64,000 bases of DNA, from positions 2,935 to 66,934 of the forward strand of contig CAZSAK010000016.1 of the NCBI GenBank assembly GCA_964605155.1, read 5' to 3'. The position numbers were made by a program, and so were the translations under genes. The DNA is from an uncultured Chromatiaceae bacterium. Its GTDB lineage: Bacteria; Pseudomonadota; Gammaproteobacteria; SZUA-140. Positions 63,589 through 64,000 of this stretch are shown here, piece after piece; the stretch's first letter is position 1, and every line of letters begins with the position of its first letter. The notes under the pieces were generated by a model. That model was not told where the DNA came from. It was given only the letters and a program-made list of their open reading frames with translations, and did not search any database.

Positions 63589-63665
63589 TGCGGGGTGGAG
63601 CAGCCTGGTAGCTCGTCGGGCTCATAACCCGAAGGTCGTAGGTTCAAATCCTGCCCCCGCTACCA
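63589..63665 (+). tRNA. Initiator tRNA-fMet (anticodon CAT).
   Basis: Near-identical to E. coli tRNA-fMet (GCGGGGTGGAGCAGCCTGGTAGCTCGTCGGGCTCATAACCCGAAGGTCGT.GGTTCAAATCC..CCCCGC.ACCA). Three G-C pairs in the anticodon stem; unpaired positions 1:72; CCA encoded. Confidence 0.9.
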
Positions 63666-63672
63666 AATAATC

Positions 63673-63705
63673 AAGGGGTTACATCCGTGTGACCCCTTTT
63701 TCATT
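63673..63705. terminator. Rho-independent terminator hairpin between the tRNA and the integrase 3' end.
   Basis: AAGGGGT-(12-nt loop)-ACCCCTT followed by TTTTCATTT. Confidence 0.7.
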
Positions 63706-64000
63706 TCAGGCGTGTGCCAGATTTGTGTCAACATCGCGGACCAGTCTCGGTTGCGCAAGCATCTCTGCGTAGTCGGCCAGATGCTCGGACGACAAGTGCG
63801 CATAGCGTCTCACCATCTCCGCGCTTTCCCACCCACCCAGTTCCTGCAAGGCGTGCAGCGGAGTGCCGGCCTGCACATGCCAGGACGCCCATGTGTGCCG
63901 CAAGTCGTGCCAGCGGAAGTCCTGAATGCCCGCACGTTGCAGGGCAGCGCGCCAAGCCTTGGTACCCGCCTTGTGCACCGGTCGCCCCCGGAATGTAAAC
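63706..64000 (-). CDS. int: Tyrosine-type site-specific recombinase/phage integrase, C-terminal catalytic part (N-terminus beyond the window).
   Basis: ...FRWHDLRHTWASWHVQAGTPLHALQELGGWES.EMVRRYAHLS contains the R-H-R-Y catalytic signature region (HxLRHT, LGH-like, YAH). The frame stays open to the window edge. Confidence 0.8.
   Translation of the reverse strand, partial: FTFRGRPVHKAGTKAWRAALQRAGIQDFRWHDLRHTWASWHVQAGTPLHALQELGGWESAEMVRRYAHLSSEHLADYAEMLAQPRLVRDVDTNLAHA

Follow-up and report, generated by a model that had tools for sequence, protein, structure and literature searches.

What does a tRNA gene with an integrase gene set tightly against it mean at the very end of a metagenomic contig? 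The question is raised by positions 63589-64000 of the window, the whole stretch of 64,000 nucleotides analysed here (contig CAZSAK010000016.1, from an uncultured Chromatiaceae bacterium), where an initiator tRNA gene (tRNA-fMet) is followed by a terminator-like hairpin and the end of a tyrosine integrase gene. An earlier note, made from the letters alone, had read this arrangement as the edge of a genomic island or prophage with its cargo just outside the window. We conclude, with a probability of roughly 0.7, that the right end of the window is the decayed attL scar of a prophage or island that integrated into tRNA-fMet, joined to the rest of the window by chimeric assembly inside the tRNA gene. 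Two loci have to be told apart. Locus A consists of acpS, a tRNA with A at position 64 (A64) and a DUF4382 gene; locus B consists of a left flank X, a tRNA with G at position 64 (G64), the hairpin, the integrase stub and glgC. The window is made of the left side of locus A and the right side of locus B. The features on which the argument turns are the following.

63117-63494, plus strand: acpS, the left flank of the locus A tRNA (open reading frame (ORF) list; exact protein on Joint Genome Institute (JGI) contig L001, annotated PF01648)
63543-63572, plus strand: promoter-like site in front of the locus A tRNA, with TTGTCA and TAATAT 18 nt apart and GC-rich sequence behind them (consensus scan)
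63589-63665, plus strand: tRNA-fMet, initiator, anticodon CAT (ARAGORN; Rfam tRNA, 62.5 bits; initiator hallmarks by script)
63589-63652, no strand: 64-base stretch that locus A (L001) and locus B (L083) share without a difference (alignment A1; BLAST of L001 and L083 against the window)
63653, plus strand: marker base, tRNA position 64, G in the window and locus B, A in locus A
63670 to 64354 of the extended sequence, no strand: sequence absent from locus A, the element remnant (L001 homology ends at 63669; homology of glgC relatives starts at 64355)
63673-63698, plus strand: intrinsic-terminator-like hairpin and T-run (consensus scan; same sequence in L083 and L002)
63706-64000, and on to 64194 beyond the window, minus strand: C-terminal remnant of a tyrosine integrase (P0001, 162 aa; translation, Pfam, homologue alignment)

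Two tRNA-fMet loci and the join between them

The two sides of the window are found apart on contigs L001 and L083, both from JGI metagenome 3300031585. L001, which encodes exactly the AcpS of the window, has a single mismatch to it in 1682 bp, at 63653, and departs from it fully from 63670 on, where an AT-rich spacer and then a convergent DUF4382/DUF5666 gene follow; after A64, the locus A sequence reads CATTTATTTTTT / CATTTATTTT. L083 carries G64 and, from the tRNA onward with glgB included, matches the window and its extension without a difference; after G64, the hairpin-side (locus B) sequence reads AATCAAGGGG. The 79 bp before the tRNA of L083 differ from the window and hold a promoter-like site of their own, TTGTCA…TACAAT (…TACAATGCGCGCTTGCTGA), whereas the acpS-side promoter of the window reads …TAATATGCGCCGCTTCAACTGG. 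No other single-nucleotide polymorphism (SNP) separates L001 and L083 from the window over about 4.4 kb. Because L001 and L083 are identical over the 64 bases at 63589-63652, the switch from locus A to locus B in the window must fall within them.

The same division appears in Logan contigs. Run SRR9700687 holds both right flanks: L002 continues the integrase side, and in L229 the DUF4382 flank adjoins A64, with about 29 nt of the tRNA before DUF4382. The exact DUF4382 protein is also encoded on another NCBI contig, of 89,875 bp. The Logan contigs all break inside the tRNA, and are therefore unable to settle the join. Upstream of the tRNA lies an intact housekeeping block, htrA-lepA-lepB-DUF4845-rnc-era-recO-pdxJ-acpS, with acpS last, which is 97% identical to Logan contig L235. 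Insertion at the 3' end of the adjoining tRNA had been read from the integrity of this block, a step undermined by the independent contigs, which pair acpS-tRNA with DUF4382 and the stub with another tRNA flank.

The two tRNA copies are identical at 76 of 77 positions (alignment A1). The tRNA of L004, a metagenome-assembled genome (MAG) with 75% PdxJ identity, is also just one base off that of the window, so the near identity of the two copies is no argument for a single genome, and the gene is conserved enough for a join across genomes. We considered G64 as a crossover mark derived from the element and rejected this, as G64 also occurs in the relatives L003, L004 and L007; being their state, it only marks locus B against locus A. 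In the 76% relatives L003, L004, L007 and L010, the acpS-tRNA-fMet arrangement is present, but no integrase, glgC or DUF4382 homologue lies nearby.

The two sides also differ in composition. The 300 bp at 63701-64000 have a GC content of 0.627, the highest of all 300-bp pieces of the window (mean 0.48, standard deviation (sd) 0.054), which bears out the GC jump described earlier; since independent contigs split acpS-tRNA from the integrase stub, part of this jump belongs to another genomic background. The GC and third-codon-position GC (GC3) of glgC-glgB (glgCB) alone lie about 2 sd above the window genes, which is not decisive, and a tetranucleotide control of the same size was therefore used. 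Tetranucleotide frequencies were correlated with those of the rest of the window, with 152 window pieces of 2.8 kb as the control:

integrase stub and glgCB side, 2.8 kb: 0.40
glgCB alone, 2.2 kb: 0.40
lowest of the 152 window pieces, 2.8 kb: 0.58
5th percentile of the 2.8-kb window pieces: 0.71
DUF4382 flank of L001, 1.7 kb: 0.80

Longer relatives extend this comparison on both sides. L235, the 97% relative of the last 10.5 kb of the window, has a GC content of 0.47. L230, a 96% relative of the DUF4382 side, has a GC content of 0.48 and a correlation with the window of 0.92; it carries cupredoxin, FTR1 and rimP-nusA-infB-rbfA-truB-rpsO-pnp, and ends in the 3' end of an A64-type tRNA-fMet. The glgCB relatives L240, L242 and L243 reach GC contents of 0.59-0.60 over 10-21 kb (0.60 over 21 kb in L240) and correlate with the window at 0.27-0.33. 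With the homologous genes excluded, the correlation between the glgCB side and L240 is 0.78. By this measure, which does not depend on an assembler, the integrase/glgCB side belongs with contigs of roughly 59-61% GC, while the window, at 48% GC, is matched by the DUF4382 side.

The fusion of metagenome contigs at conserved RNA genes is a general artefact of assembly. The window resembles such chimeras in its breakpoint inside a 64-bp identical stretch, in the shift of composition, in the disagreement between independent assemblies and in the Logan k-mer contigs that break in the same gene. As far as the sequence goes, real recombination would leave the same picture. Most likely, and on the most economical reading, a deposited NCBI contig of 69,510 bp that carries the join fuses a gammaproteobacterial genome of 48% GC to a genome of roughly 58-61% GC inside the tRNA-fMet gene. 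The GC jump would then have two sources, the integrase remnant of 62% GC and the different background behind it.

If the join were instead real, two tRNA-fMet loci of one genome would have undergone homologous recombination through their identical 64 bp, with an inversion or translocation that placed the scar and glgCB behind acpS; the JGI strain would have kept the ancestral order, and the integrase would still be dead. Several observations lean this way and weigh against a chimera. One assembly supports the join, as the 69,510-bp contig carries AcpS, P0001 and GlgC together in the order acpS-tRNA-int stub-glgC, so the join lies in the source record and is not a product of how the window was cut. 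Three sample sets (SRR9700687, JGI 3300031585 and SRR21285606) contain A-type together with B-type sequences, which would suit two loci of one compositionally mosaic genome, although cohabiting organisms would fit as well. The tRNA copies share 76 of 77 positions. Moreover, the left flank of locus B is known for 79 bp only, and no empty-site version of locus B was found, integration being read from the architecture. What makes a real join unlikely is that it requires a structural polymorphism between strains otherwise identical, with no other SNP over the 4.4 kb compared; that in tetranucleotide signature and GC the B side matches contigs of 10-21 kb and roughly 59-61% GC, and scores lower than any of the window pieces tested; and that run SRR9700687 also contains the A64-DUF4382 flank.

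A genuine join, whether by way of a giant tRNA-fMet island or by recombination between tRNA copies, would set behind acpS-tRNA-fMet, in an uncultured sulfur-cycle gammaproteobacterium of 48% GC, a large block whose GC is roughly 59-61% and whose counterparts in related contigs span tens of kb. This block would bring glgC, glgB and, judging by relatives, sulfur-oxidation and trehalose genes. We regard this outcome as decidedly improbable; if true, central carbon-storage metabolism would have been transferred by way of an initiator-tRNA site on an unusually large scale.

The initiator tRNA, its hairpin and the integrase remnant

The individual features on which the island proposal was built were recovered at their positions by ARAGORN, Rfam, folding, translation and Pfam: the tRNA-fMet, the hairpin and the end of the integrase gene, 40 nt after the CCA of the tRNA. 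Over the whole window, ARAGORN finds a single tRNA, tRNA-Met(CAT), and the tRNA is the sole match of an Rfam scan. Initiator tRNAs are identified by a CAU anticodon, three consecutive G:C pairs in the anticodon stem, an unpaired 1:72 position and A11:U24. Each of these is present in the window gene: the CAU anticodon in the loop CTCATAA, the stem TCGGG/CCCGA closed by three G:C pairs, A11 and T24 (A11:U24), and T1/T72 unpaired, as determined by script. With the E. coli tRNA-Met whose median is four places per genome, it shares 96% identity. As a side observation on this gammaproteobacterial group, the pair at 63589 and 63661 is U1/U72 in the initiator tRNAs of the window, L001, L083, L003, L004, L007 and L010 (alignment A1). 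The E. coli-type initiator has C1/A72; U1/U72 is still a mismatch, as initiators require.

The hairpin behind the tRNA has 11 pairs and a 4-nt loop, followed by TTTTTCATTT. Its predicted fold is worth -16.3 kcal/mol (z = -4.45), and none of 200 shuffled sequences was as stable. It is predicted to be a Rho-independent terminator, given the GC-rich hairpin directly before a U-run. As it lies on the element side of the junction, it is the putative terminator of the tRNA at locus B. An exact search of GTDB representative genomes gave no match to the hairpin; the source species has no close representative there, the best PdxJ match being 76%.

The stop codon of the integrase gene is at 63706-63708, and the frame is open to base 63999. 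The part inside the window encodes 97 aa with the motifs HDLRHT, GGW and RRYAHL (…FRWHDLRHTWASWHVQAGTPLHALQELGGWESAEMVRRYAHL…). This fragment is 100% identical to P0001, which is encoded on the 69,510-bp NCBI contig and on Logan contig L002 from run SRR9700687. P0001 matches Pfam Phage_integrase (PF00589) with E = 2.9e-18 and 66.7 bits (cutoff 27.1), through residues 21-137, which correspond only to profile positions 52-171 of 172. In box II, the H-x-x-R, the W and the nucleophilic Tyr align with the integrases of HP1 (HVLRHT...RYAH), PhiBP82.2 and Aaphi23. The catalytic RHRY set described from the letters is therefore visible in its H-x-x-R, W and Y, but its first Arg is not covered. Box I, which holds that residue, was not found in the stub: the Pfam match begins at profile position 52, and the tblastn alignment at residue 231 of PhiBP82.2 Int, past the ETGLRRSN box. 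An upstream 'RIRSSS' in the stub resembles box I by eye only.

The missing part was large. In tblastn comparisons, the 385-aa PhiBP82.2 Int is matched by the stub solely at residues 231-361, with 8 aa deleted, and no homology to residues 1-230 was found upstream of the stub in any frame. The whole ORF has 162 aa and the full-length proteins of the subfamily about 330-390 aa; among intact relatives, those in phage records measure 348 aa (Aaphi23 Int) and 385 aa (PhiBP82.2 Int), and those in viral contigs about 330-385 aa. What survives of the integrase inside the 162-aa ORF is only about 130 residues from its C terminus. To judge by these alignments, the gene is a dead C-terminal pseudogene remnant, its arm-binding and core-binding domains lost. 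With both domains gone and no demonstrable first catalytic Arg, the stub is unable to recombine.

One further idea about the stub was rejected, namely that the 42 N-terminal residues of P0001 (…IFWNTSDLKRKLEDFRKY) are the tail of a DDE transposase fused to the integrase. They have no such Pfam match, and the stretch aligns, with the 8-aa deletion, to WSQVDLARR… of intact integrases. Among homologues of the integrase fragment, the best 120 (P0002-P0120) are all short, at 97-167 aa, several of them on long contigs. At least one of them, P0028, reads through, by eye, into an apparent antiparallel tRNA 3' end (…RARQDLNPRPLGS). In this family of phage integrases, stubs that are truncated, or whose gene calls stop at a contig edge, seem to be very common.

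The DNA behind the remnant and the case for an island

Logan L002 and JGI L083 match the end of the window without a difference and carry the sequence 2.4 kb further. The integrase ORF starts 194 bp past the window edge and glgC begins about 220 bp further, giving 709 bp from the integrase stop to the glgC start in both contigs. glgC (421 aa, NTP_transferase in Pfam) is followed by a glgB-like branching-enzyme gene (CBM_48). Relatives of this gene pair that are 92-96% identical (L134, L240, L241, L242 and L243) have other left neighbours, with no tRNA and no integrase. Their contigs are 12.8-61.7 kb long and of roughly 59-61% GC, and tRNA and integrase are absent nearby; one of them carries DsrC together with trehalose and glycogen genes. 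In all three comparisons made at the boundary (L134, L240 and L241), homology starts at base 64355, 61 bp before the glgC start. Because the homology of these relatives starts exactly there, the element-specific DNA spans at most 685 bp (63670-64354).

The cargo expected just outside the window is therefore lacking: what follows directly is glgC and glgB, a pair found in relatives without the tRNA or the integrase. No attR was found either. A copy of the tRNA 3' half, searched for as matches of 12-20 nt with 0-4 mismatches depending on length, is absent from the window and its 2.4-kb extension, and with it the att direct repeat. The signature of a tRNA-targeting island or prophage survives in its attL-type architecture and falls short of a live island, as the integrase is a fragment and no att repeat is present. 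By its own account of what would speak against an island, the earlier note's proposal is countered on two grounds, a degraded integrase fragment with core genes behind it and the lack of an att repeat.

The principle of tRNA-targeted islands and the Islander criteria for recognising them have been described (PMC4383910). The locus resembles the islands of that work in having a tyrosine integrase beside a regenerated intact tRNA, with foreign DNA immediately behind; unlike them, it has no displaced tRNA fragment, a fragmentary integrase and at most 685 bp of foreign DNA (PMC4383910). Of the Islander features, the intact tRNA is found, and the displaced fragment, the functional integrase and the foreign cargo are not (PMC4383910). 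The unique sequence is limited to those 685 bp, and the rest is shared with relatives at 92-96% identity. As it fails on these features, the locus would not count as an island (PMC4383910).

A large GC-rich island at the acpS-side tRNA-fMet, comprising the integrase, glgC-glgB and more, with its attR far off before DUF4382, would account for the attL-type architecture and the sharp change of composition at the tRNA. L001 resembles the corresponding empty site, and L229, with its short piece of tRNA before DUF4382, could be the attR. This first reading of the locus is nonetheless very unlikely. The truncated integrase cannot have moved anything recently; in L083, the same stub and glgC stand behind a tRNA whose upstream flank differs, and a dead element cannot sit at two sites; and the glgCB relatives occupy contigs of 12.8-61.7 kb and roughly 59-61% GC with neither integrase nor tRNA nearby. 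Neither such an island nor a real join of two loci revives the integrase or supplies adjacent accessory cargo. That L001 and L083 are reciprocal chimeras and the order in the window is true has hardly any probability left: both are short (about 3 kb, perhaps of low coverage) and a wrongly resolved two-in, two-out repeat gives two reciprocal errors, but composition independently sets the DUF4382 flank beside the window (0.80) and gives the glgCB flank a different background (0.40), and L230 and L235, at 96-97% identity, place DUF4382, the nusA operon and the A64 tRNA-fMet end in 48% GC DNA like that of the window.

The preferred reading, a decayed attL scar brought behind acpS by a chimeric join, has mainly practical consequences. 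Decayed integrase stubs beside tRNA genes are common and already known as leftovers of prophages and islands, and the biological weight of this one is small, as it comes with no accessory system. Island cargo should not be sought at this end of the window. The probable chimeric join in the 69.5-kb contig would affect gene neighbourhoods, binning and GC-based island calls for the MAG. More generally, where a metagenome contig shows a jump in GC at a tRNA beside an integrase, mis-assembly inside a highly conserved tRNA can be part of the cause.

The contigs that are 92-100% identical over glgC-glgB show three kinds of left neighbours, namely the tRNA and integrase stub, an Exo_endo_phos gene, and DJ-1 with a 102-aa gene; the right neighbours differ too. 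Rearrangement seems to have recurred at position 64355, which lies 355 bp beyond the window.

Junction architecture in related phages and other insertions at tRNA-fMet

Comparison with related phages supports the attribution of an attL-type architecture to the stub locus, in which, as in this integrase family, the 3' end of the integrase gene stands against the tRNA's 3' end in antiparallel orientation. The integrase of the Burkholderia phage PhiBP82.2 (Peduoviridae, Tigrvirus) is 62% identical to the stub over 102 aa of the C-terminal catalytic region. The annotated attP of this phage is the 45-bp 3' end of tRNA-Arg(CCG), on the opposite strand, 65 bp after the integrase stop. In the lysogen, the integrase gene is the first behind the regenerated tRNA, with the 45-bp repeats at both ends of the prophage (PMC13026187). 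PhiBP82.2 also has a pair of 25-nt direct repeats about 200 bp apart around the att core, one of them over the integrase stop (L146:2693-2934). It differs from the window in its target, tRNA-Arg(CCG) and not tRNA-fMet, and in having an intact 385-aa Int in a phage of 36 kb; the window keeps only the residues equivalent to 231-361, and the phage genes are gone.

The best phage match is the integrase of the Aggregatibacter phage Aaphi23, 64% identical over 100 aa of the catalytic domain and encoded at the very end of the phage map; unlike the stub, it is a full-length functional phage gene of 348 aa. The catalytic domain of HP1 integrase (PDB 1AIH) is the sole solved structure matched by sequence (E = 1.6e-4, over HxxR...Y). 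This relationship is distant, and the stub lacks the first-Arg part of the fold as well as the N-terminal domains. Where IMG/VR relatives continue past the integrase gene, a complete antiparallel tRNA (Thr-CGT, Lys-CTT or Arg-TCT) follows, about 60-110 bp from where the integrase match ends.

The closest parallel in target is viral contig L228, whose integrase is 43% identical to the stub and lies beside a partial tRNA-fMet running from the anticodon loop to CCA+AAATAA, with the same trailing bases as in the window. Its attP-like core is flanked by 22-nt direct repeats 197 bp apart (L228:2540-2765) that resemble arm-type sites, one of them over the last integrase codons. The window has a candidate counterpart:

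63711-63731, no strand: possible arm-type (P') integrase-binding site GTGTGCCAGATTTGTGTCAAC, over the last integrase codons, agreeing by eye with the 22-nt repeat of L228 at 14 of 20 bases

The C-terminal peptide (G/D)T(N/K)L(A/S)(Q/H), encoded here, is conserved in the integrase family. It may be constrained by the arm-type DNA site rather than by protein function.

Going by these relatives, the attP of the element, a temperate phage or island long since dead, would have consisted of a copy of the 3' part of the tRNA, from the anticodon loop to CCA and a few trailing bases, just downstream of a convergent integrase gene. Recombination with a chromosomal tRNA-fMet would have regenerated an intact tRNA with the hairpin of the element as its terminator, and would have put the hairpin, the probable P' arm site and the integrase 3' end directly behind the tRNA. 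A later deletion would have taken some 60% of the integrase from its N terminus and the rest of the element, leaving no more than the 685 bp given above; the remnant runs straight into the promoter region of glgC-glgB. The scar belongs to locus B, and the window fuses the left side of locus A to the right side of locus B within the 64 identical tRNA bases.

Other parts of the window and of its relatives yielded minor observations. The region 18000-34000 of the window has a lower GC content (0.42-0.44, against 0.48-0.57 elsewhere) and contains ordinary genes, for phospholipase A1, a PP2C phosphatase, a kinase, rhomboid, PAPS reductase, HDOD, methionine-salvage enzymes and ParA. It showed no sign of an island, and its segment 29317-31956 has no kept ORF of at least 150 aa and no Rfam match. 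In L230 (Logan SRR21285606, a 96-97% relative), a low-GC (0.38) insert of 2.6 kb lies between the 3' end of tRNA-fMet(A64) and the DUF4382 spacer (L230:11669-14512). No integrase is visible in this insert; its contents are a gene of the TauD family and an ORF of 349 aa that Pfam does not match, and an imperfect 12-bp repeat, CCCGCTACCAAC / CCCGCTAACAAC, flanks it. The tRNA 3' end of locus A therefore also seems to be an insertion hotspot. Finally, L227:2850-3143 (IMG/VR UViG_2634166235_000003) shows an integrase gene of another family (N-terminus MATIRKLPSGSWQALVRRKG) behind a whole tRNA-fMet and in the same orientation; the 3' end of that tRNA and its trailing AAATAA are those seen above. At least two integrase lineages therefore use tRNA-fMet.

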